A stretch of DNA of 64,000 bases from Microthrixaceae bacterium (GCA_016702505.1 JADJDU010000003.1:256265-320264); one strand, 5' to 3'; numbered from the stretch's first letter, positions 24,924-63,816 are shown. Notes: a model not told the origin generated them from the letters alone. Made by a program: numbers and translations.

Positions 24924-26103
24924 TCACCCGGGACCGTCTACAACCGCTTCCAGGACGCCGCGGTAACGCTCGCCTGCCACCGCCATCGAGAACCGGGCCG
25001 CGCGTAGACGTGCAGCCCGGCCCATGCCGTCAAGGCGCTCACGATCGGCCAGCAAACCCGACACCGCGTCGGCCATGGCGGTCACCTCGTGTGATGCGAG
25101 GACCAGCCCGGTCTCACCGTTGGCCACCACCGCGGCCACCCCGCCTACCGGGAAGGAGACCACCGGGCATCCAGCCATCTGAGCCTCGATCGCCACCCCC
25201 GGCATTCCCTCCCCGTCGCTGGTGAGGATCAACAGATCGATCCCACCTAGGACCTGCTCCACCTCTGACACATGACCCAAGAGGTGAACCCGTTCCGCCA
25301 GACCGGCCTTGCCGACCTGGAGCTTGACGGCACCCGACCGTGGCCCTTCCCCGCCATAACCAGGTGAACCTCCACGCCCCGCTCGGCCAGTGCGGCCACC
25401 ACCTCCACGGCCACGTCGGGACGTTTCTGGTCTCGAAGTGACCCACGAAGCCGACGAGCACGGCATCGGACGGCAAACCCAGGCGCGACCGCAGACGACC
25501 GGCCTCGAGTTCTCGGTCGATGGTGTCGAAGCGAACCGAGCTACGAGAGTTGGGAATCAGTTCGACCGGTCCTTCGAAGGCCAACGCCCTCACCTCAGCC
25601 GTCAACTCAGGTGTCAGCGAGATGATCGCATCGGTACGCCCGAACACCAATCGCCACCACCAGCGCCAACACCGGCCCCGCTCTGCCACCGGCATCCCCA
25701 TTATGAGCTGGTTGACCACCGGACGCCTCCGACCGCCCAACACCGCCACCTGCAACGCTGAGCCGCCGTGGGCCAGGATCACGTCGGCATCGGTAACACC
25801 GACAGCACGACGCAACCGGGCCGCCGCCAGGGCAATCGCCAGCGGGGACTGACGAACCGCTCCGGTCAGTACCGGCAGGTCGGCAACGGTTCCTCCCTCG
25901 TGACCCGGACCGACTGCCCAAAAGGAGCTGGAGTGGCCGAACCGCTCCAGCTCTCGAGCCAACTCCAACGCCACCAACTCGGCACCACGATGGTGACTGC
26001 GGCCGACGAGGTGGAGGATCCGCACGGCCGGGAGTCTGTCACGCGCACCCGGACCATCGGAGCGGGTCATACTCGCGTGCCGTGTCCACTCCCGACTGCG
26101 CAC
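24924..26103 (-). pseudogene. GT4 (group 1) glycosyltransferase disrupted by two frameshifts (~25425 and ~25345)
   Basis: N-domain in frame A (25114..26103 ORF: ...LVGFVGHFETR). The next ~28 aa are readable only in a third frame (KRPDVAVEVVAALAERGVEVHLVMAG). The C-domain is in frame B (..25466 ORF: EGPRSGAVKLQVGKAGLAERVHLLGHV...EGMPGVAIEAQMAGCPVV). Confidence 0.6.
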
Positions 26104-27232
26104 CTGTCAATGGCCAGGAGCGGCCCGTGCGCGTCCTCGACCTGGTCAAGGGGCTCGACCGAGGCGGAGCCGAGACGCTCCTACTGACCGGCGCCCGCCA
26201 CCGGTACCCCGCCATCACCTCCGAGATCGCCTACCTGAGCTCCCGCCACGACCAACTCGTCGATGAGCTGACCGCCGAGGGGGTGAAGGTCACATGCCTG
26301 GCACCAGGTTCTATGGTCGACCCCCGCTGGCTTTGGCGTTTGCGTCGCGCCTAGCCGAAGTGGACGTGACCCATTCCCATTCACCGGTCCCGGCCACCGC
26401 GGCCAGGATCGTCTCGCGGACGATTCCCCGCCACCGTCGACCATCGCTGGTGACCACCGAGCACAACGTCTGGGACAGCCACCACCCCCTGACCAGACTG
26501 GCCGAGCGGATCACCTTCAAACTCGACGACGCCCACCTAGCAGTGTCCACCGCTGTGCTCGAGTCGCTCCCAGAGACCTACCGACCGGGTGTCGAGGTGG
26601 TGAGAGCGGGTGTCGACCTCGACGACGTCCGCTCTCACGCCGACCGGACCGGGATGCGCACAGAACTGGGAGTCTCCGATGACGAGGTCCTGATCGGCAC
26701 CGTGGCGAACCTGCGAGCGCAGAAGGGCTATCCCGACCTCCTGAGAGCGGCAAGACACGTGATCGATGCCGTGCCCAACGCCCGGTTCGTGGCCGCGGGA
26801 CGAGGGCCCCAACAGGGCGAGCTGGAGGCCCTGCACCTCGACCTGGGCCTAGGTGACCGATTCAGGTTCCTCGGTCACCGGGCCGATGCCGTGCGGGTGA
26901 TGTCCGGGCTGGACCTGTTCTGCCTCGCATCGCATCACGAAGGCCTGCCCGTCGCCCTAATGGAAGCACTGGCTCTGGGTCTGCCGGTGGTGTTGACATG
27001 AGTTGGAGGCATTCTTGAGCTGATCACCGACGGTGATCAAGGCCTCTTGGTCGACATCGGGTCGGTGGACGCCCTGGCCAACGCCCTCATCTCCGAGGCC
27101 CGCAACACCGAAGAACGCGCCACCCACGCCCGGGCGGCGCTGGCCACCGGCGATCAGCTCTCGATCAAGACCTCGGTGAAGCGGACCGAGGATCTGTACC
27201 GAACGATGGTCGAGGCCCGATGAGCGCCACCG
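26082..27232 (+). pseudogene. GT4 glycosyltransferase with one frameshift (~26340) and an in-frame TGA (26998-27000)
   Basis: ORF 26082..26354 is the N-term (RVLDLVKGLDRGGAETLLL...DPRWLWRLRRA). ORF 26294..27001 continues (LAEVDVTHSHSP...EGLPVALMEALALGLPVVLT*). After the TGA the same frame reads VGGILELITDGDQGLLVDIGSVDALANAL..., the canonical GT4 C-terminus. Confidence 0.6.
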
Positions 27233-29219
27233 AACCGGGTACCGGCGGTCACGAGGCCGGTCAGGCCCGCGAAGGCGACATTCCCAACCTTCAACGCCAA
27301 CTCGAAGCAGAACGGGCCGGAGCCACCTATTGGCGAGAACGGGCCCAGCACCACGAGAGCGCCCTGGCTGAGATCAAGTCCCGAACCGGGGTCCGAGCGG
27401 TCCTGGCTCTCGAACGTCGCACCGCGGGGATTCGCCGACGAGCCAAGGCCGTCGCCGCCGAGGTCCAAGCCGCCGGTTCGAGGTCAGCGCTGACGATTTC
27501 GGCCTTGCCCACGAGGGCGGTGATCCCCTCCCGACGCCGGGCGTTGGACGAAGCGGTGGCCCAAGCCAATCGCATGCCCCCCCTCGACCTTCGGCCAGTC
27601 CTGGTGGTGTGCATCGGGGTTGCATCGCCTCCGGCGTGGGCGGCATCAGTGGCCAGTCGTTCGACCGCCTCCGGCTCGATCACCGTCACCGTGTCCGAGA
27701 TCGAGGACCTGCCCGAGGTTGTGTCTCAGGCCGACGACGAGATCGAACTGATCTGCCTGGTCGATGCCCAGGTCGAGCCGCTCACGTCCACCTGGCTGGA
27801 CCATCTGTATGGGTCCCTCACCGAGAACGACGCGGCCGCGGCAACCGGCGTCATGGTTCACCCCCAACGGGCCCTCGCTCATTCGACGCCTCACGACTAC
27901 CTGATCCGCTCAGCCGGGTTCGAAGTGCTCACCGACACCTCGGGCGCCCCATCGGTGGTCCCGCTCCTGGCCGGCAGCATCGTCTCCCGTGCTGTCGACC
28001 GCACCGTCGATCTGGCCGGCGGGGCAATGTTGTTGGTGGATCGCCAGGCCGCGGTCGCCGCCGGTGGCTTCGACCGCTGGGGTTCCGCCGATGCCTGTGC
28101 CGTCGACCTGTGTTCGAGGCTCAACCGGAGGGCCCGGGCCGTGACCGTGGCGTCGGCTGCGCTCGGTATCGACCACCGCGACGTAACCGATCGACGCGGA
28201 TTGCGCCGCCCCTTCGACGAGACCGCTCCGGTTTGGTGCGATCTGCTCGAGCGATGTGGTCCGGCGCTGCGCCGAAGCGCAGCCACCGACCGCAATGCCC
28301 CGACATCGTTCACGTTCGCGGTGGCTGCACCCTCACCCAAGGTGGCCGACCGATGGGGTGATTGGCACCTGGCCGAGGCCATGTCCCGCGCCCTGCGATC
28401 GGCGGGATACGGAGCCGCCGTCCACACCAATCAGAGCGGAACGATCCCGGGGCCCTGTGTGCCGACGTTCAGGTGGTCGTCCGTGGCCTGGCTGGCTCGA
28501 CCCCCACCCCGGGACGCCACCAGGTGCTGTGGGTTATCAGCCACCCTGAGGACCTGCAGATCACCGAGTGCGACCGAGCCGACCTGGTACTGGTCGCTTC
28601 GAAGCTCTACGCCGATCACCTGGCGACCCTCACCTCGACTCCTGTCGGCGTGCTCCTCCAGGCCACCGACACGGCGCGCTTCCGCCCGGTACCCACCAAC
28701 CCGGATCGTCACCACGACGTGGTGGTGGTCGCGAAGTCCAGGGATGTCCTTCGGCCCATGGTGTCCCACGCCCTGGCGGCCGGCCTTCGGCCCGCCATCT
28801 ACGGCAGCGGTTGGGACCACCTAATACGACCGTCACTGATCGTCTGCGACCACATCGACAACGAATCCCTCCCCGAGCTCTACTCATCGGCCGGAGTTGT
28901 CCTCAACGACCACTGGGACACCATGCGCCACTGGGGCTTCCTGTCCAACCGCCTGTTCGACGTCCTCGCCTGCGGTACACCTGTCATATCCGACCCGATT
29001 CCCGGCCTCGGGGAACACCTCGGCGACCTGGTACCAACCTGTTCGACACCCGGTGAGCTGGCAGACCTGGTCCGCGGTGCGTTGTCGCTGAACCGAGACG
29101 CCTTTGCCGAACGGGCCCGGACAACCATCACCGCGGCCCACACCTTCACCCAGCGGGCCCGCGAGCTGACCAACGCATTGGCCGCGGCTGGAGTTCCCAT
29201 CCACCATCCAGTGTGCTGA
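27220..29219 (+). pseudogene. CgeB-family / group-1-like glycosyltransferase with N-terminal coiled coil; one frameshift at ~28440 within CCGGGGCCC (or a sequencing indel)
   Basis: ORF 27220.. is coherent to ...AVHTNQSG and then degenerates. ORF 28362..29219 continues from ALCADVQVVVRGLAG...HQVLWVISHPEDL...DLVLVASKLYADHLA (DUF3880/CgeB-like) through a GT1-type C-terminus. Confidence 0.5.
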
Positions 29220-29282
29220 TCGGCGATCGATAACGCGCGCTAGCATTTCCGGTCGCTGTTACCAAAGGAGTCGGTTCGCACA

Positions 29283-29738
29283 ATGGGTTACGTGATGGTG
29301 CCGGTGCCCGAGGAACACGTCGAGGAAGCGATGGAGGCCGTCCTTCGCATCACGCGCAGCGCTCGACTCACGCCTTGGGATCAGGAATCCATGGATGAGT
29401 TCTGGGCCGGGCTCGACGAGGGGGCCAAGGCCTTGGCTTCGTTGGTTGCCAGGGCAACGCTGGCCAACCGGCAGATCTCCCAGGCATCAGCAGCAGACCG
29501 CATGGAGGTCACCCAACGGGAGATCCTCGGGATCGTGCGAGACGTGAACCACCGAGCCCACGACATCGAAAGGCCCGCGGTCCTGATGGTCCAGGAGGCC
29601 ACCGAGACCCTGGCCAACGGGCGGACCCGGCCGGTTTCCATCGTTTCCACCAACGTGGCGCTGGCCCCCCTGATCCAACAGGCCGAACAGAACGACCTGG
29701 CCGGAGGCACCTCCACAGGGAGCGGGCTTCCGGGGTGA
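29283..29738 (+). CDS. hypothetical small protein, paralog of 49946..50374 (shared N-terminus MG.V.VPVPEEH.EE)
   Basis: 151 aa. Stop overlaps the wzm-wzt start (ATGA). No recognisable domain. Confidence 0.5.
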   Translation: MGYVMVPVPEEHVEEAMEAVLRITRSARLTPWDQESMDEFWAGLDEGAKALASLVARATLANRQISQASAADRMEVTQREILGIVRDVNHRAHDIERPAVLMVQEATETLANGRTRPVSIVSTNVALAPLIQQAEQNDLAGGTSTGSGLPG

Positions 29739-31378
29739 CAGACTTCGCCAGCGCGGCCGGCGAGCGCCCGTACAGCGACGTCGAGTACGTCTTCGAGCCG
29801 CACGACCACTCGCTTCCCGACCCTCGCGGCTACATCCGCGATGTCTGGGATCGTCGTGCCTTCATGGTGGCGAACGCCAAGGCGGAGATGAAGAGCCCCT
29901 ACGCCGGGACCGTTCTGGGCGAAGCCTGGCACATCCTCGATCCGCTCTTCCAAGCCCTGATCTACATGTTCCTGTTCACCGCTATCAGAGGAAACGGGAG
30001 CACCGACTACTTCCTCATGGTCGTGTCGGGGGTGTTCCTGTTCAACTTCACCATGGTCGGTCTGGGTCGTGGAGGGCGGGCCATCCAACGGTCGAAAGGG
30101 CTGGTGCTCAATTCGACCTTCCCGCTGGCAACCCTCCCGTTCTCGATGCTGTACGGCGGGTTCTTGGAGTTGTTGCCCACGTTGGGCGTGTACGCCGTGT
30201 TCCACCTCGTCTTCGGGGAGCGTTCGGGGTTGGCTTGTTCACCCTTCCTCCTGTTCATCCTTCAGGTCGCGATAATCGTGGGGCTGATGCTCCTCTTCGC
30301 CACCCTCACCGTCTACGTGAGGGACATGTCCAACCTGTTGGACTACATCCTCCGTATCCTGATGTTCGTCACCCCGGTCATCTATCCGGCGTCCCAGTTG
30401 GAGAAGCTCCCCACGGTTCTGGCCGCGATTTTGCACCTGAACCCGTTCTTCACCCTCTTCACCTCCTACCAGACCGCACTGAGCGGTGGGGTTCCGCGGC
30501 CCACGGACATCGCCCAGTCGATGGTGTGGGCCGTGGTGCTACCCATCTTGGGATTTCGGTTCTTCGTGTCCGGGAACGGGCTTCGCCATGAGGCTCCAGT
30601 GACTACAGGACCCGATCTGCCCGCGATCGAGGTGCAGAACCTGTCGACGTCCTACCACGTCCACCTCGACGCTGGTTCGACGTGGGGCGGCATCTACGAC
30701 CTGCTTCGACGCAGCCCGGACACCGACAGGATCGTCCCGGCCTTACGAGATGTCTCCTTCGAGGTGCCCCGAGGCAACGTTCTGGGTGTCATCGGACGAA
30801 ACGGTGCCGGAAAATCGACCCTGCTGCGCTGCATCGCTGGGGTACTACCCCCCGAACAGGGGCGAGTGGTGGTCCGGGGCCGAATCTCCTCACTTCTCAG
30901 CATCGGCGTGGGCATGAACGGCAGCCTCACCGGACGGGAGAACATCAGGCTCGGTGGTCTGGCCATCGGCCTGAGCCCCGACCAACTCGATGACATGACC
31001 GACGACATCGCCCACTTCGCCCAGTTGGGCGAGTACGTGGACTTCCCGGTCAACGCCTACTCGTCGGGGATGAAGGCCCGCCTCGGATTCGCGGTCGTCG
31101 CCCACTTGGACCCCGAAGTCCTCCTCATCGACGAGGCCCTGGCTGGCGGCGACTCCAAGTTCCAGGAGAAGGTGGCCAAGAAGATGGCCGAGATCTGCAG
31201 CAGCGGCCGGACCATCGTCTTGGTGAGCCACGGTCTCAATGCTCTGCGGTCGATGGCCACCACCGCCATTTGGCTGCACCAAGGACAGATCGTCGAGGAC
31301 GGGGACCCCGATGACGTCGTTTCCTCATACATGCGCTTTGCTCGAATCCAGGCCCTCGGCGGCGAACTCGACTTCTGA
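29735..31378 (+). CDS. fused ABC-2 permease / ATPase polysaccharide exporter (Wzm-Wzt / TagG-TagH-like)
   Basis: N-terminal six-TM ABC-2 domain. C-terminal NBD with Walker A GRNGAGKST, signature YSSGMKARLGFA and Walker B LLIDEAL. No C-terminal carbohydrate-binding extension. Confidence 0.85.
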   Translation: MTDFASAAGERPYSDVEYVFEPHDHSLPDPRGYIRDVWDRRAFMVANAKAEMKSPYAGTVLGEAWHILDPLFQALIYMFLFTAIRGNGSTDYFLMVVSGVFLFNFTMVGLGRGGRAIQRSKGLVLNSTFPLATLPFSMLYGGFLELLPTLGVYAVFHLVFGERSGLACSPFLLFILQVAIIVGLMLLFATLTVYVRDMSNLLDYILRILMFVTPVIYPASQLEKLPTVLAAILHLNPFFTLFTSYQTALSGGVPRPTDIAQSMVWAVVLPILGFRFFVSGNGLRHEAPVTTGPDLPAIEVQNLSTSYHVHLDAGSTWGGIYDLLRRSPDTDRIVPALRDVSFEVPRGNVLGVIGRNGAGKSTLLRCIAGVLPPEQGRVVVRGRISSLLSIGVGMNGSLTGRENIRLGGLAIGLSPDQLDDMTDDIAHFAQLGEYVDFPVNAYSSGMKARLGFAVVAHLDPEVLLIDEALAGGDSKFQEKVAKKMAEICSSGRTIVLVSHGLNALRSMATTAIWLHQGQIVEDGDPDDVVSSYMRFARIQALGGELDF

Positions 31379-31399: not shown

Positions 31400-32602
31400 G
31401 TGACGATCCCTTTCACTCCATTCGAAGACGACGACCTCCCACCCAGATCACGTCCTGTCAAAGAGCCCGAGCCGATCGACGACACCGTGCCGCCAACGTC
31501 AGCGCAGACGGGCCGAACCCCCGATGCCGGCGCCTCCAGCGACGATGTGACCGAAGACGACGACGAACCCCGCCTGGGGACGTCGCCCACCATCTCCAAG
31601 GCCGACGTCTCGGCCAAGGCGTCTAGGCGCAAGGCTCGGACCGGGGGTTCAGGTGGCTCAGGAGCGCGGCGCCGCAGCCGCCCCATCCTGGGGATCTCAC
31701 TCGTGGTTCTGGCGGCGGTGGTGTTCGCTGGCCTTCCGCTCCTCAAGTCGGCGTTCGCCCGCACACCCAAGGACCGCATCGGCATCAGCTACGGCGGTGG
31801 CCCGATCGAAGGCGTTCACTTCCAAAAGATCGTCGAACCCGGCCACGGCCTCTTCTTCAACGGCTTCTTCGATTCTCTCTACCTCTACCCCGCCGACCAG
31901 CTCAACTACATCCTGGCTCCCAAGCCGACCAAGGACGGCAAGGACACGACCCCCGACGCGGTCGTTGCACCCACCTCAGACCGTGTGAACGTGAGCTATC
32001 AGGTTGCCGTCTACTACCGGCTGAACACCGACAAGCTCCGAGACTTCCACGAGGAGTTCGGCCTCCGCTATCAGGCCTACACCAACAAGGGCTGGGATCG
32101 CCTGGTGGCCGACACCCTGCGCCAGCAGATCGAGGCTGCCCTCCAGGAGGAGACCAGGCGGCACACCGTCGCCGACCTGTTCGGGGACGCTGACCTTCTC
32201 GTCAAGGTCCAGAACGAGATCCAGGGAACCATCAGCACCCGCCTGGAAGCGGCGATGGGCGGACGGTTCTTCTGCGGCCCCACGTTCACAGCGGGCGGTG
32301 AGTGCGGCAACCCGACCTTCGTGATCAAGCGGATCGACATCCCCGAGTCGGTAGCCGCCGCCTTCGAGTCGAACCGGACTTCTGAGGTGATGATCACCAC
32401 CCGCCAGAACGAGGTCCGTCAACGCGAGGAGGAGGCTCGGGCCATCGCCGCCATCAACGAAGCCCTCCAGCAGAACTCCCGCGCCTACGTGATGCTCAAG
32501 GCCATCGAGTCCGGGAAGATCAACTTCTGGGTCATCCCCGAGGGAGCAGACGTCGACCTCACCGCTCCCGACACCTCCACGCCGCCCACGGCCGGCCAGT
32601 AA
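31400..32602 (+). CDS. SPFH/band-7 (stomatin/prohibitin-like) membrane protein with acidic disordered N-terminus
   Basis: One TM (ILGISLVVLAAVVFAGLPLL) followed by an SPFH-like core and a C-terminal coiled coil. Confidence 0.65.
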   Translation: MTIPFTPFEDDDLPPRSRPVKEPEPIDDTVPPTSAQTGRTPDAGASSDDVTEDDDEPRLGTSPTISKADVSAKASRRKARTGGSGGSGARRRSRPILGISLVVLAAVVFAGLPLLKSAFARTPKDRIGISYGGGPIEGVHFQKIVEPGHGLFFNGFFDSLYLYPADQLNYILAPKPTKDGKDTTPDAVVAPTSDRVNVSYQVAVYYRLNTDKLRDFHEEFGLRYQAYTNKGWDRLVADTLRQQIEAALQEETRRHTVADLFGDADLLVKVQNEIQGTISTRLEAAMGGRFFCGPTFTAGGECGNPTFVIKRIDIPESVAAAFESNRTSEVMITTRQNEVRQREEEARAIAAINEALQQNSRAYVMLKAIESGKINFWVIPEGADVDLTAPDTSTPPTAGQ

Positions 32603-43922: not shown

Positions 43923-44027
43923 CGCGTTGTCGCCGGTTGGAGGATCAATGGTGGGGCTGGGCACGGCGGGCAGGATAGATCGCTCAGAGCACACCGATCG
44001 GTTCGTTGTGGCCCGGCACACCTGGGC

Positions 44028-54696: not shown

Positions 54697-54845
54697 TCGG
54701 CGGGGCGCGATTCCTTGACCGGGTTTGGGACGGGCGGACCCTAGCGCGGCGGGGAACGGGCGGGGCCGACGGCCAAAGAGCCGCACGGGTCACAGCTCCG
54801 GCCATTACCGGAGCCTTTCTGGTCGGGCGTGGTATCGATTTGGGG

Positions 54846-56578
54846 TGAGCACCGTCACCTACTCCGACTCCGCCGCAGACGGGACCGGGAGCTACACGGC
54901 CGAGTCGGCGATGGCCACCTCCCCGTCGGCACGGACCGCTCGCTGGGCGGCGTGGACATTCGGTGTCTACGTGGCAGCCGCTTTCCCTCTCATCCTGTTC
55001 GGACTCGGTCGGTACTGGTGGTTCTTCCGTGACGACTGGTACTTCGTCGCCGAGCGTGACATCTCCGTCGACGGACTGATGCAGGATCACAACGGTCACT
55101 GGTCATCCGTGCCGGTCGCAGCCTTCCGGCTCGCCTACGTCGTCTTCGGAATCCGGTCGTACATGCCGTATCAGGCGATGGTGGTGGTGGCGCACCTGGC
55201 TGTAGCGGTCTGCATCCGGATGATCATGCGTCGGTACGATGTGAACCCGTGGCTGGCAACGGTGGCGGCAGGTGCGCTCGTGCTCTTCGGTTCGGGCCGC
55301 GAGGACATCATCTGGGCCTTCCAGATCGGCTTCACCGGTTCACTGGCCTTCACCCTTGCCCAATGGGTCATCGCCGACCGGCCGGGCCCGGTGCGCCGGA
55401 GCGACTACCTGGCTCCCGTGTTGGGCACGTTGGGGCTTGCGTCTAGCAGTCCGGCGCTGATGGTCATGGCTGGTCTGTCGGTCACCCTTTTGGTCCGACG
55501 AGGTTGGAAGCCCATGGTGATCAACGTGGGCCCGCCCGCCCTCGCCTACCTGGTGTGGTCGGCCTTGATCCACCCCGACAGGAGTAGCCCGTGGGGACGC
55601 CCCGGACTCGGCGAATACCAGGACTGGGTGACCACCGGCGTGCGGGGCGTGTTCGTCGAGCTCACCGGATTTTGGTGGGCCGGAGCGATCCTCGGTCTTG
55701 CCGTCGCCGTCGGGATCGCCATGGCGGTCCTGAGGCCCGGGACCGACAGCACCAGCTCCAGCGACCGCGGCGATGAGATACACGGCTCCTCCAGCCGCGT
55801 CGTCAGAACGGTGGCGTCGGCCCGCTTGCGGCTGACACCGATCATCGGACCGCTGGCCTTGTTCGGATCGACCATCCTCTTCATCCTGGTGGCCGCCCAG
55901 CGTGCCTGGCTGTTCGGGCCCGGTGCGGCCGTGGCCAGCCGCTATCTGTACGCGTACGTGGCCCTGTCCCTGCCGCTGATAGCGGCGTCGATCCAGTCGA
56001 TCTCACGGTGGTGGCGACCAGCCGCCGTTGCGATTCCTGCGCTGCTGATCCTGGGGGTACCTCACAACATCGCGCAGTTCGAGGACACCGTTTTCAGCCC
56101 CGATCACCACGACCACCAGGGCAGGCTGATCCTCAACGTCCTGCGCCATCCGGCCGCGGCCAACGCACCAGATCGACTTCGTCCCGATCCCGACGTGTTC
56201 AACTCCCAGAGCCTGACCGTGGGCTTCCTCCGCAGAGCCGCAACCGAGGGCAAACTCCCGGAGGTGTCGGGACCCATCCCCGCCGACATCGATGCCGAGT
56301 TGACGGTTCGGTTGGGGCTCATGCAAGAACTCGGTGACTGGCGGGTGGTCCCTTGCCAGGCGACAACAGTGGCCCACCTCGAGCCGACGGTCGGCATGGT
56401 CTTCTTCCTGACCGAGCCAGTGCTGGTGACTCCCCGCTCGAGTTCGGGCCAGCGCTTTCCGGTGGAAGTCACCCCCGACGACGGGGCCATCGTGACCGTG
56501 GTCGCGCCAGGCCTCGATCTCGACCTCACCAGCCAGGCGAGACCTGGTTCCCCCGCTTCGATCTGTGTCGTCAACTAA
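54846..56578 (+). CDS. polytopic membrane protein (>=11 TM), putative GT-C-type glycosyltransferase or glycan-processing membrane enzyme
   Basis: Hydrophobic helices throughout the N-terminal 400 aa (FRDDWYFV loop motif after TM1), then a soluble ~180-aa C-terminal domain. Start is GTG ~54846 or ATG 54908. Confidence 0.55.
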
Positions 56579-56601: not shown

Positions 56602-57873
56602 TTAGAGCGCCGAGACCAACTCGAGCACCCGACGGACCTGGAGGTCCCAACTGAAGGAAACCTCCACCTCGGCTCGTCCAGACGAACCCAGCCGTGATCG
56701 CAGATCTGGGTCGTCTCGAAGACGGACCATCGCCGACCGGAGCTCACCCAGATCTACCGGGGAAACCAGGAGGGCCTGTTCCTCGTGGGTCAGGCGACTG
56801 GCGACCGTCGGGACATCTGGAGCTATCACTGCCAGACCTGACGCCAAGTACTCAGCCAGCTTGAGCGGCGAATAGTGGAACTCCCCGTGTTCGGGAGCCA
56901 CGACCACGGCCGTGTCCATCGCCCCGAAGTAGCGGGGAAGATCGAAATGGGGAACGGTGCCGGTGAACACCGCCCGCACCCCGAGCGACCTGGCCCGCTC
57001 TTCGACCATCGGACGATCAGGTCCATCACCAACCATCAACAGACAGACCCCATCGAGACCTGCTGCGGCATCCACGAGCCGGGTCAAGGAGTGGAACGGC
57101 CGGAAGCTCCCCACCCAGCCCACGACGAACTCCGCACCAATTCCGAGCCGAGCCCGCACTGCTGCCGCTTCTTCCGCGGAGGCCGGCTCCTCGATCTCCA
57201 CACCCGACGGGGTGATGAGGATCCGGTCCCGGTCGACGCCGATGCGGACCGCTTCCTCGGCGACCTCCTCCGAGCCACAGGCCAACACCGAGGCTCGGCG
57301 AAGGGTGGGAGCCTCGCCTAGACGCTCCACCAACCCCCCCCAACCCGGACGCGCCACACCCCACCGCTTGGCCTCCCACACGGCGACGGCCGGAGCAAAG
57401 ACCACCGAGGGAACCCCCAATGCGTCAGCCAGGTCGACCCCTGCGGTGTGGAACAACTCGTGTCGCTGCCACACGAAGTCGACCTGATGTCCAGACCAGG
57501 GCCCGTCGGGGGTGACGGTGAAGCCCGATCCCCGGGCCACCTGCCGAAGATCCTTCGCCGCGGTCTTGACCATCGTCGGAACCCGCGATGCAACCGAAGG
57601 GGACGCAGATGGACTCAGGTGGGCGCCCGAGGCTCGCCGTCGCGCTTCATCGGCATCGAGCACCCCCTCAGGGGTGACCATCCACGACGGGCCCACCACC
57701 CTTTCGCAGGCCGCCAGCCACCCAGCCGAGCTCAACAGCGCGGCCACAGGACCCTGCTGACCGGCAGTAGTCGTCGGGAGAACCAGGACCGCACCCACGG
57801 GGCGGACCCTAATGGGACCTCCCGCAGCGCACGGCTGCCAACGTCCCCGTCCGAACAATCGGAACGACCACAC
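56602..57873 (-). CDS. GT4 (group 1) glycosyltransferase
   Basis: C-domain GWVGSFRPFHSLTRLVDAA...LLMVGDGPDRP...EFHYSPLKLAEYLASGLAVIAPD (EX7E-type). Confidence 0.8.
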   Translation of the reverse strand: MWSFRLFGRGRWQPCAAGGPIRVRPVGAVLVLPTTTAGQQGPVAALLSSAGWLAACERVVGPSWMVTPEGVLDADEARRRASGAHLSPSASPSVASRVPTMVKTAAKDLRQVARGSGFTVTPDGPWSGHQVDFVWQRHELFHTAGVDLADALGVPSVVFAPAVAVWEAKRWGVARPGWGGLVERLGEAPTLRRASVLACGSEEVAEEAVRIGVDRDRILITPSGVEIEEPASAEEAAAVRARLGIGAEFVVGWVGSFRPFHSLTRLVDAAAGLDGVCLLMVGDGPDRPMVEERARSLGVRAVFTGTVPHFDLPRYFGAMDTAVVVAPEHGEFHYSPLKLAEYLASGLAVIAPDVPTVASRLTHEEQALLVSPVDLGELRSAMVRLRDDPDLRSRLGSSGRAEVEVSFSWDLQVRRVLELVSAL

Positions 57874-57985: not shown

Positions 57986-60034
57986 GTGAACCAGGAACGT
58001 TCGCTTCCGCCGGCCGATCCGATCTCACCGGTACCGGAGCTGCCGAGCCTCGTCTACCGAGTGGCTCGGGGGGCAGACAACCTGAGCCTACGGTTCATGG
58101 ACCTGGGCATCGTGGCCGCGGCTTGGGCCTTGGCCATCAGTGCCGCCTTCGACACCTCGGCCAAGGACATGACCCTGGCGCTGGCTTGGATCATGCCCCT
58201 GGCCGTCATCGTCCAACTGGTCGGCCACCGCCTTGCTGGTCTCTACGGGCCGGTGTGGCGCTATGCCTCGGTCGACGAAGCGGCTCGGGTGGTGGCTGGC
58301 GTCTTGGGCGGGTCGATCCTGGCCACGATCACCACCGTCATCGCGGCCACCACCACCCACACCCCGTTCCCATTCGTCACCGCTCCGCCTCTCGCCGCTT
58401 TTCTGAGCTTGCTCGGTTGTGGTGGCGTCCGCTTCCAGTCCCGCCTCTTCGCCCTGGAACGTCAACAGGCCCGTGACGCCTCCGGCCTCCGGTCTGTCAT
58501 CGTCGGTGCTGGCACCGCTGGCGCGGCCCTGGCCTACGAGCTCACCCACACCGACGCCGGACGACCCACCAACGTGGTCGGCTTCATCGATGACGACCCC
58601 GAGCTCGTCGGCCGGTCGGTGCGAGGCTTCACCGTGCTGGGCACCACCGACGACCTGGAATCGATCTGTGTCAGCCACCGGATCGAAAGGGTTCTGATCG
58701 CCGAGGACGAGGACAATCGGCACCGGGTCAAGACGGTGGTGGACCAGGCCTTGCGTACCCACGCCCAGGTCAAGGTGCTGCCGTTGTCCACCGGGCGGGT
58801 GGACGGCCCCCTCGTGCGCAACCTGCGCGACCTGGATGTGACCGACCTGCTCGGGCGCGAGCACGCCCCCGTCGACTCCGACGACATCGACCACTATCTA
58901 CGCGACGCCACCGTGCTGATCACCGGGGCCGGGGGGTCGATCGGCAGCGAGATCGCGCGCCAGGTGGCTCGGCACCGTCCCGCTCGGCTCCTGCTCCTCG
59001 ATCGTGACGAGAGCCTCCTCCACGACGTGACCACCGGGCCTCTCGCTGACTCGGGGGTAGACATCGCTCCGGTACTGGCCGACATCTGCGATCAGGTGAG
59101 GGTCCAGGATCTGTTCGAGAACGAACGACCCGACGTGGTGTTCCACGCCGCCGCTCAAAAGCACGTGCCCATCTTGGAGAAATACCCGGTGGAAGCGGTG
59201 CGGACCAACGTGTTCGGCACCTGGAACCTGATCAGCACCGCAGCCGAGTACGGCACCGGTCGTTTCGTGCACATCTCCACCGACAAGGCCGCCGATCCCT
59301 GTTCGGTCATGGGAGCCACCAAGCGCGCCGCTGAGCAGATGGTGTTCGAGGTCGGTCGTCGCCACCAACTCCCGTTCGTGGCCGTTCGCTTCGGCAACGT
59401 ATTGGGCAGCCGGGGCAGCGTGGTGCCCACGTTCCTGCGCCAGATCGTGGATGGCGGACCGGTCACGGTCACCAGCCCCGAGATGACCCGCTACTTCATG
59501 ACCATCCCTGAGGCCGTGAGCCTGGTGCTCCAGTCCGGGGCGATGGCCGATCCGGGCCGCGTCTACCTGTTGGACATGGGCGAGCCCGTGTCCATCCTGG
59601 CTCTGGCCCGACAGCTGATTCGCCTCGCTGGCCTCCGGCCAGGAGAGGACGTGAGGATCTCCATCGTCGGCACCAGGCCCGGAGAGCGACTCCACGAACG
59701 TCTCCACGACGACGCCGAGAGCATCGAACCGTCAGATCACCCCTCGATATCTTCGTTGAACCCGAAGATCCCATGGCAGTGGGATGAACTGGTCGAGGCC
59801 CTCGCCTCCCTGCGCAAGTCCGTCGATGCCCGTGACGACGCCATGGTCAGACACCAGCTCGAGTCGATGCTCCGAAAGGGCGGCGTCGATTGCGTACTCG
59901 ACCATGGTGAGACCACCATTCCCGTCGACCAGCACCCGGGCTCGCCCCGGGCGACGGCGATCGTCAGAGACCTGTCCGAGAAGCGGGCCGAACGCCAGGC
60001 TCCACCGGCATCCGATACCGGCACCGTCCGCTGA
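57986..60034 (+). CDS. membrane-anchored NDP-sugar 4,6-dehydratase/epimerase (CapD/WbpM/PglF-like polysaccharide biosynthesis protein)
   Basis: Four N-terminal TM helices, then tandem Rossmann domains (VIVGAGTAGAALAYEL; VLITGAGGSIGSEIARQV) and a catalytic YxxxK region, as in the CapD family. Confidence 0.85.
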   Translation: MNQERSLPPADPISPVPELPSLVYRVARGADNLSLRFMDLGIVAAAWALAISAAFDTSAKDMTLALAWIMPLAVIVQLVGHRLAGLYGPVWRYASVDEAARVVAGVLGGSILATITTVIAATTTHTPFPFVTAPPLAAFLSLLGCGGVRFQSRLFALERQQARDASGLRSVIVGAGTAGAALAYELTHTDAGRPTNVVGFIDDDPELVGRSVRGFTVLGTTDDLESICVSHRIERVLIAEDEDNRHRVKTVVDQALRTHAQVKVLPLSTGRVDGPLVRNLRDLDVTDLLGREHAPVDSDDIDHYLRDATVLITGAGGSIGSEIARQVARHRPARLLLLDRDESLLHDVTTGPLADSGVDIAPVLADICDQVRVQDLFENERPDVVFHAAAQKHVPILEKYPVEAVRTNVFGTWNLISTAAEYGTGRFVHISTDKAADPCSVMGATKRAAEQMVFEVGRRHQLPFVAVRFGNVLGSRGSVVPTFLRQIVDGGPVTVTSPEMTRYFMTIPEAVSLVLQSGAMADPGRVYLLDMGEPVSILALARQLIRLAGLRPGEDVRISIVGTRPGERLHERLHDDAESIEPSDHPSISSLNPKIPWQWDELVEALASLRKSVDARDDAMVRHQLESMLRKGGVDCVLDHGETTIPVDQHPGSPRATAIVRDLSEKRAERQAPPASDTGTVR

Positions 60035-60083: not shown

Positions 60084-61172
60084 ATGAAGGGTCTCATCCT
60101 CGCTGGCGGCTCGGGCACCCGGCTCCGCCCCATCACCCACACCGGCGCCAAGCAACTGGTGCCGGTGGCCAACACTCCGATCCTGTTCTACGGGCTTCAG
60201 CACATGGCCGATGCCGGCATCGAAGAGGTCGGCATCATCGTGGGCGACACCGGTGACGAGATCCGGGCCGCGGTGGGAAACGGATCGCGCTGGGGTCTCG
60301 AGGTCACCTACCTGCCTCAAGACGCTCCGCTCGGGCTGGCCCACGCCGTGCTGATCGCCCGGGATTTCTTGGGTGACGACGAGTTCGTGATGTACCTCGG
60401 AGACAACCTCCTCCGTGACGGGATCACCAGCTTCGTAGACGAGTTCACCGCCCACCGGGCCGAAACCGGCCCCGACTCCTGTTCGGCCCAGATCCTTTTG
60501 GCCCACGTTCCCGATCCGCAGCGTTTCGGTGTGGCCGAGCTCGGCCCCGATGGCGAGGTCGTGGCCCTGGTCGAGAAGCCCGAGGTTCCACCGTCGGACC
60601 TTGCCCTGGTCGGCGTGTACCTCTTCGATCCCTCCATCCACGAAGCGGTCAGAGCGATCGAGCCTTCGGACCGCGGCGAGTTGGAGATCACCGACGCCAT
60701 CCAGTGGCTGATCGACAACGGCCACCGCGTCCGCCATGAGGTGCTCGACGGGTGGTGGCTCGACACCGGCAAGCTCACCCCACTCCTGGAAGCCAACCGC
60801 TTGATCCTCGAGGTTCTGGAGCCTTCCAACCACGGCAAGGTCGACGAGCACTCTCAGCTCGACGGCCGGGTTCAGGTGGCCGAAGGGGCCGAGATCATCC
60901 GGTCGACCATTCGTGGTCCGGTGGCCATCGGAGCCAATACCCGGGTTGTCGACAGCTACATCGGCCCGTTCTCATCGGTAGACGCTGACTGCGAGATCAT
61001 CCAGTCCGAGTTGGAGCACTCGATCGTCCTGGCCAACAGCCGCGTCGAAAACGTCCCGAGGGTGATCGACTCGCTGATCGGTCGCCACGCCGTGGTCCAA
61101 CGCACCCATCAGCGACCGCGAGCAAACCGCTTCTTGGTGGGCGACCACTGCCAGATCGACATCGATTCCTGA
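60084..61172 (+). CDS. rmlA: glucose-1-phosphate thymidylyltransferase (long actinobacterial form)
   Basis: MKGLILAGGSGTRLRPITHTGAKQLVPV is the sugar nucleotidyltransferase signature. The C-terminal half is a left-handed beta-helix. Confidence 0.9.
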   Translation: MKGLILAGGSGTRLRPITHTGAKQLVPVANTPILFYGLQHMADAGIEEVGIIVGDTGDEIRAAVGNGSRWGLEVTYLPQDAPLGLAHAVLIARDFLGDDEFVMYLGDNLLRDGITSFVDEFTAHRAETGPDSCSAQILLAHVPDPQRFGVAELGPDGEVVALVEKPEVPPSDLALVGVYLFDPSIHEAVRAIEPSDRGELEITDAIQWLIDNGHRVRHEVLDGWWLDTGKLTPLLEANRLILEVLEPSNHGKVDEHSQLDGRVQVAEGAEIIRSTIRGPVAIGANTRVVDSYIGPFSSVDADCEIIQSELEHSIVLANSRVENVPRVIDSLIGRHAVVQRTHQRPRANRFLVGDHCQIDIDS

Positions 61173-61185
61173 AAGAGCGACCTTC

Positions 61186-61764
61186 ATGGCCACCATCACC
61201 CCATCCGACGTCATCGACGGGGTCACCGTCGTACAACCTGACATCCACGGTGACGAACGCGGGATCTTCATAGAGACGTACCGCCGGAACTGGTTCCCCG
61301 GCGGTCGGGAGATGATCCAAGGCAACCGCGGCGACCGCCGGGCCGGAGCCATCGTCGGCCTCCACTACCACCTGCACCAGGCCGACTACTGGTACGTGCC
61401 CTTCGGGCAGGCCCGGGTCGTGCTCCACGACCTCCGCACCGGTTCCCCCACCGACGGAGCCACGCTCACCATCGACATAGGGTCGACGCCCGGCACTGCC
61501 GGGGTAGACCACGACCACCGGGGCATCTACATCCCGCCCGGAGTGGCCCACGGGTTCTCCGCGCTCACCGACATGACCATCACCTACCTGGTCGACGGCT
61601 ACTACAACCCGGCCGACGAGTTGGGGGTGGCCTGGGATGACCCCGCCATCGGAGCCGACTGGGGAGTGACCGACCCGGTCGTGTCGGCCCGAGACCAGGC
61701 CAACCCCCGCCGCTCCGACCTGGAGCCCGCCCTGCAACCTCACCACCGGCTGCGCATGGCGTAA
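61186..61764 (+). CDS. rmlC: dTDP-4-dehydrorhamnose 3,5-epimerase
   Basis: Cupin fold with ...HGDERGIFIETYR...GLHYH...YVPPGVAHGF. Confidence 0.85.
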   Translation: MATITPSDVIDGVTVVQPDIHGDERGIFIETYRRNWFPGGREMIQGNRGDRRAGAIVGLHYHLHQADYWYVPFGQARVVLHDLRTGSPTDGATLTIDIGSTPGTAGVDHDHRGIYIPPGVAHGFSALTDMTITYLVDGYYNPADELGVAWDDPAIGADWGVTDPVVSARDQANPRRSDLEPALQPHHRLRMA

Positions 61765-61805
61765 CCCGCCCCCGGTTCCCCAGCGTCCACTAAGTTCCGC
61801 ACCCC

Positions 61806-62807
61806 ATGAGCATCCTCGTCACCGGCGGCGCCGGCTTCATCGGCTCCAACTTCGTCCGCTACTGGACCGACCACCACCCCGAGGACCACGTTGTCGCCCT
61901 CGATGCCCTCACCTACGCCGGGGTTCGGGAGAACGTCGACGGGATCGACGGGGTCACCTTCGCCCTCGCCGACATCGGTGACACCGACACCGTGGCCGGG
62001 TTGCTCGAGACCCACTCCGTGGATCGCATCGTTAACTTCGCTGCCGAGTCCCACAACAGCCTGGCCGTGGTTGATCCAGCTCGCTTCTTCCGTACCAACG
62101 TCTTGGGTACCCAGGGGTTGTGCGAAGCGGCCCGTCGAGTCGGTGTCACCCGGTTCCACCACGTCTCCACCTGTGAGGTGTACGGCGACCTCGACTTGGA
62201 CACCGACGAGATGTTCACCGAGGAATCCCCCTACCGGCCCCGCACGCCGTACAACGCATCCAAGGCCGGGGGAGACCACGTCGTCAGGTCCTACTACGAG
62301 ACCTGGGACCTGCCCATCACCATCACGAACTGCGCCAACAACTACGGGGCCTACCAGTTCCCCGAGAAGGTCATCCCCTTCTTCACCACCCTGGCCATCC
62401 AGGACCAGTCGCTCCCCATGTACGCGTCTACCCAGAACCGGCGCGAGTGGATCCATGCCTTGGACCACTGCCGGGCCATCGACCTGATCCTGGAGCGAGG
62501 CCGGATCGGCGAGACGTACCACGTCGGCACCGGAGTCGAGAAGAGCGTGGAAGAGATCGCCGACCTGATCCTGGCGCACCTCGACAAGCCTCAAAGCCTG
62601 AAGACCATCGTTCCGGACCGTCCCGGCCACGACCGCCGCTACGTCCTGGACTGGACCAAGATCCGCACCGAGCTGGGTTGGGAGCCCACCATCGGCTGGG
62701 ACTCTGGCATCGCCGAGACCATCGACTGGTACGTCGCCAACCAAGCCTGGTGGGAGCCACTGCGCGACCGTGCACCGGTAGCCGAGGGAACAGCATGGTC
62801 CAAGTGA
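61806..62807 (+). CDS. rmlB: dTDP-glucose 4,6-dehydratase
   Basis: MSILVTGGAGFIGSNFV..., catalytic YNASKAG and NNYGAYQFPEKVIP. Confidence 0.9.
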   Translation: MSILVTGGAGFIGSNFVRYWTDHHPEDHVVALDALTYAGVRENVDGIDGVTFALADIGDTDTVAGLLETHSVDRIVNFAAESHNSLAVVDPARFFRTNVLGTQGLCEAARRVGVTRFHHVSTCEVYGDLDLDTDEMFTEESPYRPRTPYNASKAGGDHVVRSYYETWDLPITITNCANNYGAYQFPEKVIPFFTTLAIQDQSLPMYASTQNRREWIHALDHCRAIDLILERGRIGETYHVGTGVEKSVEEIADLILAHLDKPQSLKTIVPDRPGHDRRYVLDWTKIRTELGWEPTIGWDSGIAETIDWYVANQAWWEPLRDRAPVAEGTAWSK

Positions 62808-62817
62808 CGTCGTCGCC

Positions 62818-63690
62818 GTGAGCATCCGACGAAAGGTCCTGATCACCGGCGCGGGCGGCCAGGTCGGCCAGGAGGCCACCGACCTGTTCGGGGCGGCCGA
62901 CTGGGAGGTCGTCGCCTGTGACCGGGCCCGTCTCGACGTCACCAACCGAGACGAGGTACTCGATGCCGTGGCGACGGCCAAGCCCGAGGCGGTCTTGAAC
63001 CTGGCCGCATGGAACGCCGTCGACCTGGCCGAATCCGAACCCGACGGCGCTTACGCGGCCAACACCATGGCGGTGCGCCACCTGGCAGAAGCCTGCCGTC
63101 GCCACAACGCCCGCCTCGCCCACGTATCCACTGACTACGTGTTCGACGGGACCAAGGACACCCCCTACGTCGAGTGGGATGACACCAACCCCCTATCGGT
63201 GTACGGGCGTTCCAAACGCGGCGGTGAGGTGGAGGCCGGGTCCGAGGCGCTGGTGGTCCGGACGTCGTGGGTGTGCGGGGCCCGTGGCTCCAACGCGGTC
63301 ACCACCGTGCTCCGACTGGCCGCCGAGACGGACCAGACGCTGGCCTTCGTCACCGACCAGCGTGGCTGCCCCACTCTGGCCAAGGACCTGGCCGCCACCC
63401 TGCTCACGCTCGTCTCGGATCGGCACAACGGCATCTACCACGTGACCAACTCAGGGGCCGTGAGCTGGTACGAGTTCGTTCAACACATCCTGGAGGCCGC
63501 CGGCCACCCCGTGTCGAGGGTCCGTCCGATCACCACCGCCAAGTTGGATCCCGCTCGACCCGCTACCCGACCGGCCAACTCGGTGCTCGATCATGCCGCC
63601 CTGCGCCTAAGTGGCATAGCTCCGATGCGACACTTCTCCGAGCCGCTGGCCGAGATGATCGCTGAGCTTGCGACCGGGGCACGGTGGCGT
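62818..63690 (+). CDS. rmlD: dTDP-4-dehydrorhamnose reductase; 3' end uncertain because the frame stays open to the window edge
   Basis: GTG start at 62818 gives VSIRRKVLITGAGGQVGQE...VSTDYVFDG...YGRSK... The frame is not in the ORF track because it has no stop before position 64000. Confidence 0.75.
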
Positions 63691-63816
63691 TGCCCTGAGG
63701 CCAGCGGACCAACACTGCCAACGCGCCAGCCGGTGACGACCAGCTCCCCGCACACTCGACCGCCCCGGGTTCCCTACTCGTCTCGGGGCAGGACCAGGAC
63801 GCCCCTGCTGACGGTC

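Follow-up and report, generated by a model that had tools for sequence, protein, structure and literature searches.

A 64,000-nt stretch of DNA (GCA_016702505.1, JADJDU010000003.1:256265-320264; ~65% G+C), here called the window and numbered from its first letter, carries between 24.9 and 63.7 kb a ~39-kb glycan-assembly locus whose host is most likely an uncultured Acidimicrobiales bacterium. We favor, with moderate confidence, the interpretation that this locus encodes an ATP-binding cassette (ABC) transporter-dependent pathway for a lipid-linked, L-rhamnose-containing envelope heteropolysaccharide that would be multiply O-methylated and, probably, also C-methylated, O-acylated, and sulfated. 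The combination of a dTDP-rhamnose supply, many soluble glycosyltransferases (GTs), a Wzm/Wzt exporter, and a GT-C membrane enzyme with no Wzx or Wzy points to this route; neither the Wzx nor the Wzy families appeared in Pfam scans of the open reading frames (ORFs) judged to be coding between 24.4 and 64 kb. The type of pathway is known, and the novelty lies in an uncharacterized enzyme set, above all two proteins of ~1,100 aa (hereafter the giants) that join three methyltransferase-like domains to one GT2 domain, and a sulfotransferase-GT4-GT4 protein. A preliminary description of the window had read the region as one coherent locus combining dTDP-rhamnose supply and an ABC exporter with unusually many methyl, acyl, and sulfate tailoring domains, and the analysis presented here upholds that view.

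Genes were picked by third-position G+C and then scanned against the Pfam and NCBIfam profile libraries. These scans bear out, at their positions, nearly all of the domains that had been listed for the locus. The features are given below, with related contigs and loci numbered with an L.

24924-26103, minus strand: GT4 glycosyltransferase a, in two frames in the window (Pfam N-terminal domain 25114-26103, C-terminal domain 24924-25466); 382 aa in L090/L091.
26127-27214, plus strand: GT4 glycosyltransferase b, interrupted in the window by a frameshift and by an in-frame TGA; 365-380 aa and intact in L090/L091.
27220-29219, plus strand: CgeB-like protein, 666 aa, C-terminal Glyco_trans_1_2 (Pfam 70.7 bits); frameshifted in the window, intact in L090-L094.
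29283-29738, plus strand: probable MarR-like winged-helix protein, 151 aa, translationally coupled to wzm (predicted structure, homologues).
29735-30600, plus strand: wzm, ABC-2 permease (Pfam ABC2_membrane), 3' end shifted into the wzt frame in the window; 290 aa in same-species contigs.
30596-31378, plus strand: wzt, ABC ATPase (ABC_tran), 259 aa; a separate 259-aa gene in L004, L008, L010, and L090-L094.
31400-32602, plus strand: SPFH/Band-7 membrane protein (Pfam Band_7 51.8 bits), one hydrophobic segment at aa 92-121.
32623-36129, plus strand: sulfotransferase (Sulfotransfer_3 42 bits), probable coiled coil, and two GT4 modules, 1,260 aa if intact; broken twice in the window.
36188-39583, plus strand: giant 1, 1,131 aa, with Methyltransf_24, TylF-like, GT2, and CmcI-like domains (Pfam).
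39611-40675, minus strand: TPR and PhyH-like Fe(II)/2-oxoglutarate dioxygenase (Pfam PhyH 33.8 bits, cut-off 22).
40685-41311, minus strand: hexapeptide (CysE/EpsC-like) acyltransferase (Pfam Hexapep; NCBIfam EpsC 93 bits, under the cut-off of 150).
41308-42303, minus strand: PhyH-like dioxygenase paralogue, 38% identical to 39611-40675 (Pfam weak, 18.6 bits, under the cut-off of 22).
42300-42938, minus strand: hexapeptide acyltransferase paralogue, 42% identical to 40685-41311 (Pfam Hexapep; NCBIfam EpsC 79.9 bits).
43080-44021, minus strand: stand-alone TylF-family sugar O-methyltransferase (Pfam TylF 315 bits); identical protein in 66 blocks of the sequence collection.
44028-45172, minus strand: second TylF-like methyltransferase, 381 aa if intact, split in the window (Pfam TylF 57.9 bits on 44028-44825).
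45192-47144, minus strand: 650-aa protein, SGNH-like N-terminal domain (Lipase_GDSL_2 26.4 bits, under the cut-off of 32.9), C-terminal half without a family.
47157-49829, minus strand: B12-binding radical S-adenosylmethionine (SAM) protein of the KedN5-like C-methyltransferase type (NCBIfam B12_rSAM_KedN5 249.5 bits), with a ~315-aa N-terminal region without a family.
49946-50374, minus strand: 142-aa paralogue of the probable MarR-like small protein, 29% identical to 29283-29738, retaining the PVPEEH motif.
50479-51402, minus strand: stand-alone soluble GT2 (Pfam GT2 35 bits), paralogue of the giants' GT2.
51416-54697, minus strand: giant 2, 1,093 aa, four domains as in giant 1 (Pfam); start at 54697 from homology and same-species gene calls.
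54845-56578, plus strand: GT-C-fold membrane glycosyltransferase, 577 aa, with a small C-terminal beta domain.
56602-57873, minus strand: GT4 glycosyltransferase (Pfam Glyco_trans_1_4 61 bits); 321-323 aa in same-species contigs.
57986-60034, plus strand: membrane-anchored CapD/PglF-type nucleoside diphosphate (NDP)-sugar 4,6-dehydratase (Polysacc_synt_2 346 bits and CoA_binding_3), four N-terminal hydrophobic segments.
60084-61172, plus strand: rmlA, long form with a left-handed beta-helix tail (TIGR01208 452.7 bits, cut-off 320.25).
61186-61764, plus strand: rmlC (Pfam dTDP_sugar_isom 123 bits, cut-off 27; NCBIfam 101.9 bits, under 155.75).
61806-62807, plus strand: rmlB (TIGR01181 399.6 bits, cut-off 365.1).
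62818-63699, plus strand: rmlD (TIGR01214 283.4 bits, cut-off 224.05), stop lost in the window so that the ORF enters the next gene; 293 aa when intact.

The locus thus encodes about nine GT-A/GT-B modules (GT4, GT2, and CgeB-like Glyco_trans_1_2) and eight sugar-O-methyltransferase-like domains, three in each giant plus those of the 43080-44021 and 44028-45172 genes. Several of the glycosyltransferases tallied in the preliminary description are pieces of single genes. The dTDP-L-rhamnose set is complete: RmlA (long), RmlB, and RmlD pass NCBIfam equivalog cut-offs, and are the only proteins of the locus with equivalog-level membership in characterized enzyme families, while RmlC passes Pfam only. 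The CapD/PglF-type dehydratase scores 172 bits against NCBIfam PseB, under the cut-off of that model.

Both giants were assigned a TylF domain (134.8 bits in giant 1 and 153.3 bits in giant 2), an RMNT_CmcI domain (132 and 126.5 bits, cut-off 23.2), a Methyltransf_24 domain (50.1 and 54 bits), and a GT2 domain (23.5 and 29.4 bits) by Pfam, and the two proteins are 51% identical over 1,122 aa by blastp. Their TylF domains match MycF and NovP in the PDB (E 6e-27 with a single protein, 1e-52 with a profile), CmcI was also matched, and the glycine-rich SAM loops and DGDH-type motifs are invariant in an alignment of 23 giants. Four TylF-family domains occur in the locus, the remaining two being those of the 43080 gene (315 bits) and the 44028 gene (57.9-63 bits), all scored against a cut-off of 23; as a family they match MycF/NovP at E 6e-27 to 1e-56 (profile). 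The CmcI domain of giant 1 also scores 108.5 bits against the rhamnosyl O-methyltransferase equivalog NF045824 (Rv2959c), under its cut-off of 400. The giants are soluble, and the stand-alone GT2 protein, which is 41-42% identical to their GT2 region by blastp, has no hydrophobic segment. We also considered this stand-alone GT2 as a GtrB-like partner of the GT-C enzyme, a role made unlikely by its lack of a membrane segment and its paralogy to the GT2 of the giants.

Each giant combines one GT2 with three domains resembling metal-dependent sugar O-methyltransferases. On the simplest reading of this content, each protein would transfer a single sugar, probably a 6-deoxyhexose, and O-methylate as many as three of its hydroxyls, the product being either in-chain or a permethylated cap. 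A more ambitious proposal, which we consider doubtful, is that the giants are self-contained add-and-permethylate enzymes that, together with a sulfotransferase-ruler-polymerase, would create new caps (a tri-O-methyl sugar and a sulfate) on a glycan found class-wide in Acidimicrobiia; under this proposal, the methyl-rich, hydrophobic surface of the glycan could account for traits such as the hydrophobicity of Microthrix-type filaments. The duplication noted earlier among giants, oxygenase/acyltransferase pairs, small proteins, and methyltransferases is real by blastp, and the identities of the internal paralogues (29-51% overall; 38% for the dioxygenases, 42% for the acyltransferases, and 29% for the small proteins) indicate that it is old.

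The sulfotransferase-GT protein opens with a full-length Sulfotransfer_3 domain (aa 3-193) carrying a GMHRSGTS loop of the 3'-phosphoadenosine-5'-phosphosulfate (PAPS) type, followed by a heptad-like stretch and two GT4 modules. Since this layout resembles that of the terminators WbbB and O7 ORF6 of Klebsiella pneumoniae, sulfation as a chain-ending modification is, by analogy, a reasonable idea. A crude heptad score additionally marks aa 58-91 of the CgeB-like protein (27220-29219) as a possible short N-terminal coiled coil. The best NCBIfam matches of Wzt are TagH and the galactan Wzt, both under their cut-offs. An identical copy of the SPFH protein is found in 56 blocks of the sequence collection, in every case after wzt.

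The 151-aa protein encoded ahead of wzm has 74 homologues of near-constant length that share the motifs MxYVMVPVPEEHVEE and LPNGRTRE, and in ~14 related loci a homologue lies within ~1 kb of wzm/wzt. It had no match in the Pfam scan. Its AlphaFold2 model has a mean predicted local distance difference test (pLDDT) score of 86.9, and the best Foldseek hits are MarR-, SmtB-, or ArsR-type regulators, at weak scores (E ~1e-3, template modeling (TM) score 0.35-0.45). On this predicted fold, the protein and its 142-aa paralogue are probably MarR-like winged-helix regulators. The paralogy of the two small proteins recognized earlier is retained; roles as enzymes or exporter adaptors were considered and rejected because the predicted fold points to MarR-like regulators.

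Further tailoring capacity is encoded between the giants. In the first PhyH-like dioxygenase, the residues H232, D234, H320, and R332 do not vary across an alignment of six homologues (WHQDG...H...R), and its paralogue retains the HxD...H triad and the arginine; a PDB sequence search with the PhyH-like protein matched the TPR repeat only. The radical-SAM protein falls under the KedN5 cut-off of 700 bits, yet KedN5 is by far its best family; it carries CPYSCTYC (CxxxCxxC) at aa 460 and scores 59.4 bits against Pfam Radical_SAM (cut-off 29.5). Tandem arrays of two to four paralogous B12-radical-SAM genes (~880 aa) adjoin giants in relatives (L020:1-8000; L025:17263-23046; L031:1-5000), an arrangement suggestive of repeated C-methylation, or of related radical chemistry, in certain lineages. 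In the 650-aa SGNH-like protein, the GDS (WLGDSIS), GTND (GTGTND), and DGVH (DGVHP) blocks are readable although the Pfam score is under the cut-off, and no homologue of this protein was found in 78 related loci.

GT-C enzymes carry catalytic acidic residues just after the first transmembrane helix. The protein encoded at 54845-56578 is a polytopic membrane protein of this fold, and 29 homologues share an acidic motif (consensus WFFRDDW) in its first extracytoplasmic loop, directly after the first transmembrane helix, with W59, F60, D63, W65, and F67 invariant, so the GT-C-like assignment made in the preliminary description holds. No membrane-bound GT2 polyprenyl-phosphate-sugar synthase that could partner this enzyme was found in the locus. 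The family has no Pfam model, and the loci of relatives often encode two divergent members of it (L001:2086-5588; L050; L021; L071).

These components can be arranged into a pathway. RmlA(long)BCD would supply dTDP-L-rhamnose and the CapD/PglF-like dehydratase a 4-keto-6-deoxy-N-acetylhexosamine precursor, while an initiating phosphoglycosyltransferase encoded elsewhere would prime the polyprenyl phosphate carrier. Soluble GT4 and GT2 enzymes would lengthen the chain at the cytoplasmic face, with the 1,260-aa protein in a terminator-ruler-polymerase format, and the giants would contribute sugar addition and up to three O-methylations, possibly forming a permethylated non-reducing cap. The two TylF enzymes, the B12-radical-SAM protein, the dioxygenase-acyltransferase pairs, and the SGNH protein could provide further acyl, hydroxyl, and C-methyl decoration. 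Wzm and Wzt, as two proteins, would export the chain, with the SPFH protein alongside, and the GT-C enzyme would act after export, either adding a branch from a polyprenyl-phosphate sugar or transferring the glycan to its acceptor. The two MarR-like proteins would probably regulate the locus. In this scheme the domain identities, folds, gene order, conservation, and intactness in the species are observed, whereas the substrates, the reaction order, the terminator roles, and the final acceptor are inferred.

Several observations weigh against this pathway. First, Wzt (259 aa) consists of the nucleotide-binding domain only and lacks the C-terminal carbohydrate-binding module that, in classic terminator systems, couples capping to export. 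Second, neither an initiating phosphoglycosyltransferase of the WecA/TagO or WbaP type nor an LCP-type ligase is encoded in the locus or just beyond it, the former having been sought up to 2.5 kb past rmlD in same-species contigs; the initiator is encoded elsewhere in several known systems (PMC11754754), so its absence does not exclude an ABC-dependent pathway. Third, the coiled coil of the sulfotransferase-GT protein is a charged, heptad-like stretch (aa ~262-340) scored by a crude script only, and rhamnose as the giants' substrate rests on family names and the adjoining rml genes only. Fourth, in a survey of 34 large related loci covering 10 kb around the giants, in loci that can span 40 kb, only ~8 have Wzm/Wzt inside that range, so that giants and exporter are not always adjacent. 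Finally, about six genes are broken in the window itself.

The broken genes were found with frame plots and tblastn searches with homologues, followed by base-by-base alignment to same-species contigs. The species is represented in many public metagenome assemblies, and the comparison set consists of independent same-species assemblies of 99.8-99.9% nucleotide identity, five for the left arm and two to four per site elsewhere. Relative to their consensus, the window has ~13 small indels, most of them a single base missing from a short C or G run, together with a 277-bp deletion and a cluster of C-to-T differences. The genes broken in the window are GT4a, GT4b, those for the CgeB-like and sulfotransferase-GT proteins, the second TylF-like one, and rmlD, while in the same-species assemblies all genes are intact where covered, and wzm and wzt are separate. 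GT4a, a single in-frame gene in relatives, has two single-base losses, at 25348 and 25433 (compared with L090/L091). GT4b has lost a base at 26349 and carries a C-to-T change at 26999 that makes a TGA, in agreement with the two frames and stop given by tblastn with the L002 and L004 homologues; the change belongs to a group of five C-to-T differences within 41 nt (26994-27034), which could be a deamination-like artefact or local hypermutation. A one-base loss at 28426 splits the CgeB-like gene (two frames by tblastn). The sulfotransferase-GT gene has a one-base insertion at 32836 and the 277-bp deletion at 35154/35155 (compared with L007, L087, L088, L090, and L091), whose junction shows no flanking direct repeat or microhomology. 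In the second TylF-like gene, GGG has become GG at 44827 compared with L086 and L089, where the product is 381 aa, and five relatives have it in one frame; rmlD has lost a base at 63669 compared with L095 and L098 (RmlD 293 aa).

The fused Wzm-Wzt exporter reported in the preliminary description is a further product of these lesions. A 547-aa ORF (29735-31378) is present in the window, but it arises from one-base losses at 30571 and 30577, and both the ancestral Wzm C-terminus (GFAMRLQ and stop) and the GTGA in which its stop overlaps the wzt start can still be read in the other frame. Two genes are found in the loci of the three non-redundant closest relatives and in all same-species contigs. 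The wzm and wzt frames differ in L004, L008, L010, and nearly all of ~20 related loci examined, and three distant loci in which the frames coincide have the order wzt-wzm; the fusion is absent from all ~20, and we reject it as a conserved architecture. Exact-protein look-ups of the fused exporter, and of RmlB, gave no match. The alignments indicate that the fused exporter, the GT fragments, the split methyltransferase, and the RmlD read-through are not properties of the locus in this species. As a practical lesson, the exotic-looking fused exporter and the abundance of short GT ORFs both trace back to defects in a single assembly.

The lesions could also be biological. In that case the locus is decaying in the window's strain, the exporter-side GTs, one methyltransferase gene, and rmlD are true pseudogenes, and the full glycan is no longer made, an explanation to which we assign a minor but appreciable probability. 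None of the two to five independent same-species assemblies available per site has the ~13 indels, the 277-bp deletion, or the premature TGA. Ten of the 13 indels fall within 25.3-32.9 kb, whereas other parts of the locus retain intact ORFs of 890-1,131 aa. Neither a stop-creating substitution nor a deletion that lacks flanking repeats is typical of homopolymer errors. However, nearly all of the indels are single-base losses in short C/G runs, a pattern that marks consensus errors in certain sequencing chemistries, two indel pairs (28827/28829 and 30219/30246) compensate each other within a few codons, and the five clustered C-to-T differences resemble a damaged or single-read consensus. Similar scattered frameshifts affect long-read metagenome-assembled genomes (MAGs) of relatives: in the MFD MAGs L025, L030, and L047 the homologous genes are full of tblastn frameshifts, and many Acidimicrobiia MAG loci carry consensus indel errors. 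The homopolymer pattern favors error, and the clustering, the deletion, and the stop favor decay.

Beyond the species, homology searches indicate a locus that is class-wide across Acidimicrobiia in its core enzymes. More than 1,100 giant homologues with a common architecture were retrieved at E<=1e-10, with at least 595 matches in one-genome-per-species contigs. Nearly all of these are from Acidimicrobiia (including Microthrixaceae, Iamiaceae, and Aquihabitans) and some from Solirubrobacterales, and homologues with a named source are annotated as Acidimicrobiales, Acidimicrobiia, or Actinomycetota. Full-length giants also occur in MAGs labeled outside the class (L060 and L077, Acidobacteria; L046, L054, L056, and L062, Solirubrobacterales), which could represent a real spread to Thermoleophilia or, for the Acidobacteria label, mis-binning. 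Complete Acidimicrobiia chromosomes that carry giants include OY969725.1, OZ244202.1, and OY970387.1, and the best matches all come from MAGs. Many loci encode two or three of these proteins, and whereas orthologues of the giant-2 type (56-62% identity) are widespread, those of the giant-1 type are found in close relatives only. In relatives at 72-76% identity the order GT4, CgeB-like gene, small protein, wzm, wzt, SPFH, sulfotransferase-GT, giant 1, dioxygenase, acyltransferase, and, further on, GT2 and giant 2 is kept. The central cassette between the acyltransferase and GT2 varies among species, as is expected for a surface glycan. To the question raised earlier, whether the locus is conserved or strain-specific, the answer is that it is not strain-specific. 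Its genes are split over at least six strand blocks, but the order is conserved in relatives. In the survey of 10 kb around giants, radical-SAM genes were present in 7 and GT-C genes in at least 8 of the 34 large loci.

The same survey bears on the rather unlikely possibility that two or more glycan systems lie side by side here. An exporter module (the GT4s, the CgeB-like protein, Wzm/Wzt, the SPFH protein, and the sulfotransferase-GT4-GT4 protein) would then be distinct from a giant module (giants, dioxygenases, acyltransferases, and methyltransferases), the latter perhaps making a cytoplasmic polymethylated, acylated polysaccharide like the mycobacterial methylglucose lipopolysaccharide (MGLP) or methylmannose polysaccharide (MMP). 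The giants are soluble, most of the large related loci have no exporter within 10 kb of a giant, and PhyH-like (22/34) and acyltransferase (16/34) genes travel with giants, while the sulfotransferase-GT and SPFH proteins are restricted to close relatives. Mycobacterial polymethylated polysaccharides (PMPS) are likewise methylated, acylated, and cytoplasmic (PMC2674218, PMC9883506). Against a division of this kind, giant 1 comes immediately after the exporter operon, in the same orientation and with a gap of 59 nt, in this species and in the 72-76% relatives, and the GT-C enzyme and the membrane-anchored dehydratase lie inside the giant module. The surveyed flanks, moreover, were 10 kb long in loci that can reach 40 kb.

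The final acceptor may also differ from that of a lipid-linked envelope polysaccharide. In an improbable variant, the glycan is linked to protein (an S-layer or surface glycoprotein) and the GT-C enzyme is an oligosaccharyltransferase acting after ABC export, as in the slg system of Geobacillus stearothermophilus. A small glycosylated natural product or glycolipid made by antibiotic-type deoxysugar tailoring (TylF, KedN5-like radical SAM, and rml) is very improbable: the nearest solved methyltransferases (MycF, NovP, and CalS11) and the best radical-SAM family (KedN5) do come from antibiotic pathways, but Pfam and NCBIfam scans found no polyketide synthase (PKS), nonribosomal peptide synthetase (NRPS), terpene, or lipid-scaffold genes in the window, the locus has ten GT modules along with Wzm/Wzt and a GT-C enzyme, and the giant family is class-wide and multi-copy.

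The limits of the locus are about right as they had been drawn. In same-species contigs, rmlD is followed by a gene for a 333-aa lipoprotein-like protein, a 131-aa ORF, a sigma-70 factor, and dUTPase; these housekeeping genes, together with a mobile element ending at 23.35 kb, show that 24.9-63.7 kb brackets the locus well. The N-terminus of the 333-aa protein resembles a lipoprotein signal (MAVLTSSVLAACG), and its Pfam scan gave no match. On the left, a small bacterial-globin-like gene (24420-24914; Pfam Bac_globin, 28 bits) lies between a helix-turn-helix (HTH) regulator and the first GT4, in the same position as in same-species contigs. Farther upstream are a cysteinyl-tRNA-synthetase-class catalytic domain, of the size of MshC (inferred to be the mycothiol ligase), and an F420H2-dependent quinone reductase, both of which fit Actinomycetota.

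The mobile element, an integrative mobilisable element located at tRNA-Lys, occupies 13565-23354 and includes the tRNA (13565-13640), a tyrosine integrase (13733-15325), and a TrwC relaxase-helicase (15683-19315). It carries low-GC cargo (~56% G+C) at 19.7-21.9 kb, a Fic/Doc and ribbon-helix-helix (RHH) pair (22394-23013), and three 52-nt attachment (att) copies of the tRNA 3' half, at 13591, 22373, and 23303. Of the same-species contigs, L093 is without the element, whereas in L090 and L092 only its Fic/RHH part is retained. The glycan locus was considered as part of this integrase/relaxase island and rejected as such, since the element ends with its att repeats at 23,354 and one same-species contig without the element still carries the locus. 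An Rfam scan of the window found tRNA only, and a promoter/terminator scan performed no better than on shuffled sequence.

Soils, oceans, and activated sludge are rich in Acidimicrobiia, and we know of nothing reported on their envelope glycans. If the ABC-dependent polysaccharide pathway is correct, the giant would be a conserved marker, in at least 595 species-level genomes, for a chemically undescribed glycan family. The locus would also offer candidate enzymes for regiospecific O- and C-methylation of sugars and for polysaccharide sulfation, and would add an actinobacterial, possibly sulfate-terminated example to the enterobacterial polymerase-terminator model.

A literature search found, in the library covered, no characterized cluster with this gene order and no publications on Acidimicrobiia or Microthrix glycans or on CmcI/TylF-GT fusions. 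The earlier statement that the locus matches no described pathway nevertheless goes too far, as the overall logic is that of a known route, ABC-dependent export with extracytoplasmic GT-C decoration (PMC11231755, PMC11754754, PMC2943079). The ABC-dependent polymerase-terminator O-antigens include Escherichia coli O9a/K. pneumoniae O3 (WbdA-WbdD), K. pneumoniae O12 (WbbB), and O7, whose ORF6 is a methyltransferase-containing rhamnosyltransferase (PMC11231755). The locus resembles these systems in Wzm/Wzt export of a chain completed in the cytoplasm, in the absence of Wzx/Wzy, and in multi-module GTs, and its sulfotransferase-GT protein resembles WbbB and O7 ORF6 in joining an N-terminal modifying domain, a coiled-coil-like stretch, and two GT modules in one chain. 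Unlike the enterobacterial systems, it belongs to a monoderm actinobacterial host, its modifying domain is an N-terminal sulfotransferase instead of a kinase-methyltransferase or a 3-deoxy-D-manno-octulosonic acid (Kdo) transferase, its Wzt has no carbohydrate-binding module, and its coiled coil is short and crudely predicted. The giants, with no coiled coil and with three methyltransferase domains and one GT2, have no equivalent in polymerase-terminator systems.

Among Gram-positive systems, the slg cluster of G. stearothermophilus NRS 2004/3a shares rmlACBD, wzm/wzt, a multidomain O-methyltransferase-GT2 enzyme, and a post-export membrane transferase with the locus (PMC2943079). The multidomain enzyme, WsaE, joins O-methyltransferase and GT2 rhamnosyltransferase activities, with one methyltransferase and two GT domains compared with the three methyltransferase-like domains and one GT2 of the giants, a comparison made at the level of domain content. 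The slg cluster has a WbaP-type initiator and the WsaB transferase, and no sulfotransferase, dioxygenases, radical-SAM enzyme, or acyltransferases (PMC2943079). The Streptococcus mutans serotype c carbohydrate (SCC) and S. pyogenes group A carbohydrate (GAC) are similar in a polyrhamnose-type chain on undecaprenyl phosphate, ABC export, GT-C decoration outside the cell, and an initiator outside the cluster; their decorations are glucose/N-acetylglucosamine and glycerol phosphate, compared with the methyl, acyl, and sulfate groups proposed here (PMC11754754).

Mycobacterial phenolic glycolipids (PGL) and glycopeptidolipids (GPL) are O-methylated 6-deoxyhexose glycolipids, and the Rv2959c family consists of rhamnosyl O-methyltransferases. 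MGLP and MMP are polymethylated polysaccharides of mycobacteria, MGLP being also acylated (PMC2674218, PMC9883506). The locus shares with these glycolipids and PMPS an actinobacterial background, CmcI-type domains like those of rhamnosyl O-methyltransferases, and multiply methylated deoxyhexoses that would give hydrophobic glycans. The enzymes of mycobacteria have one domain each and use lipids or polymers of the cytoplasm as substrates; this locus has no lipid or peptide scaffold genes. Four domains of the locus are clear members of the TylF/MycF/NovP family of deoxysugar O-methyltransferases from antibiotic pathways, and what sets those of the giants apart is their fusion to a GT2 and two more methyltransferase-like domains in a polysaccharide-type locus.

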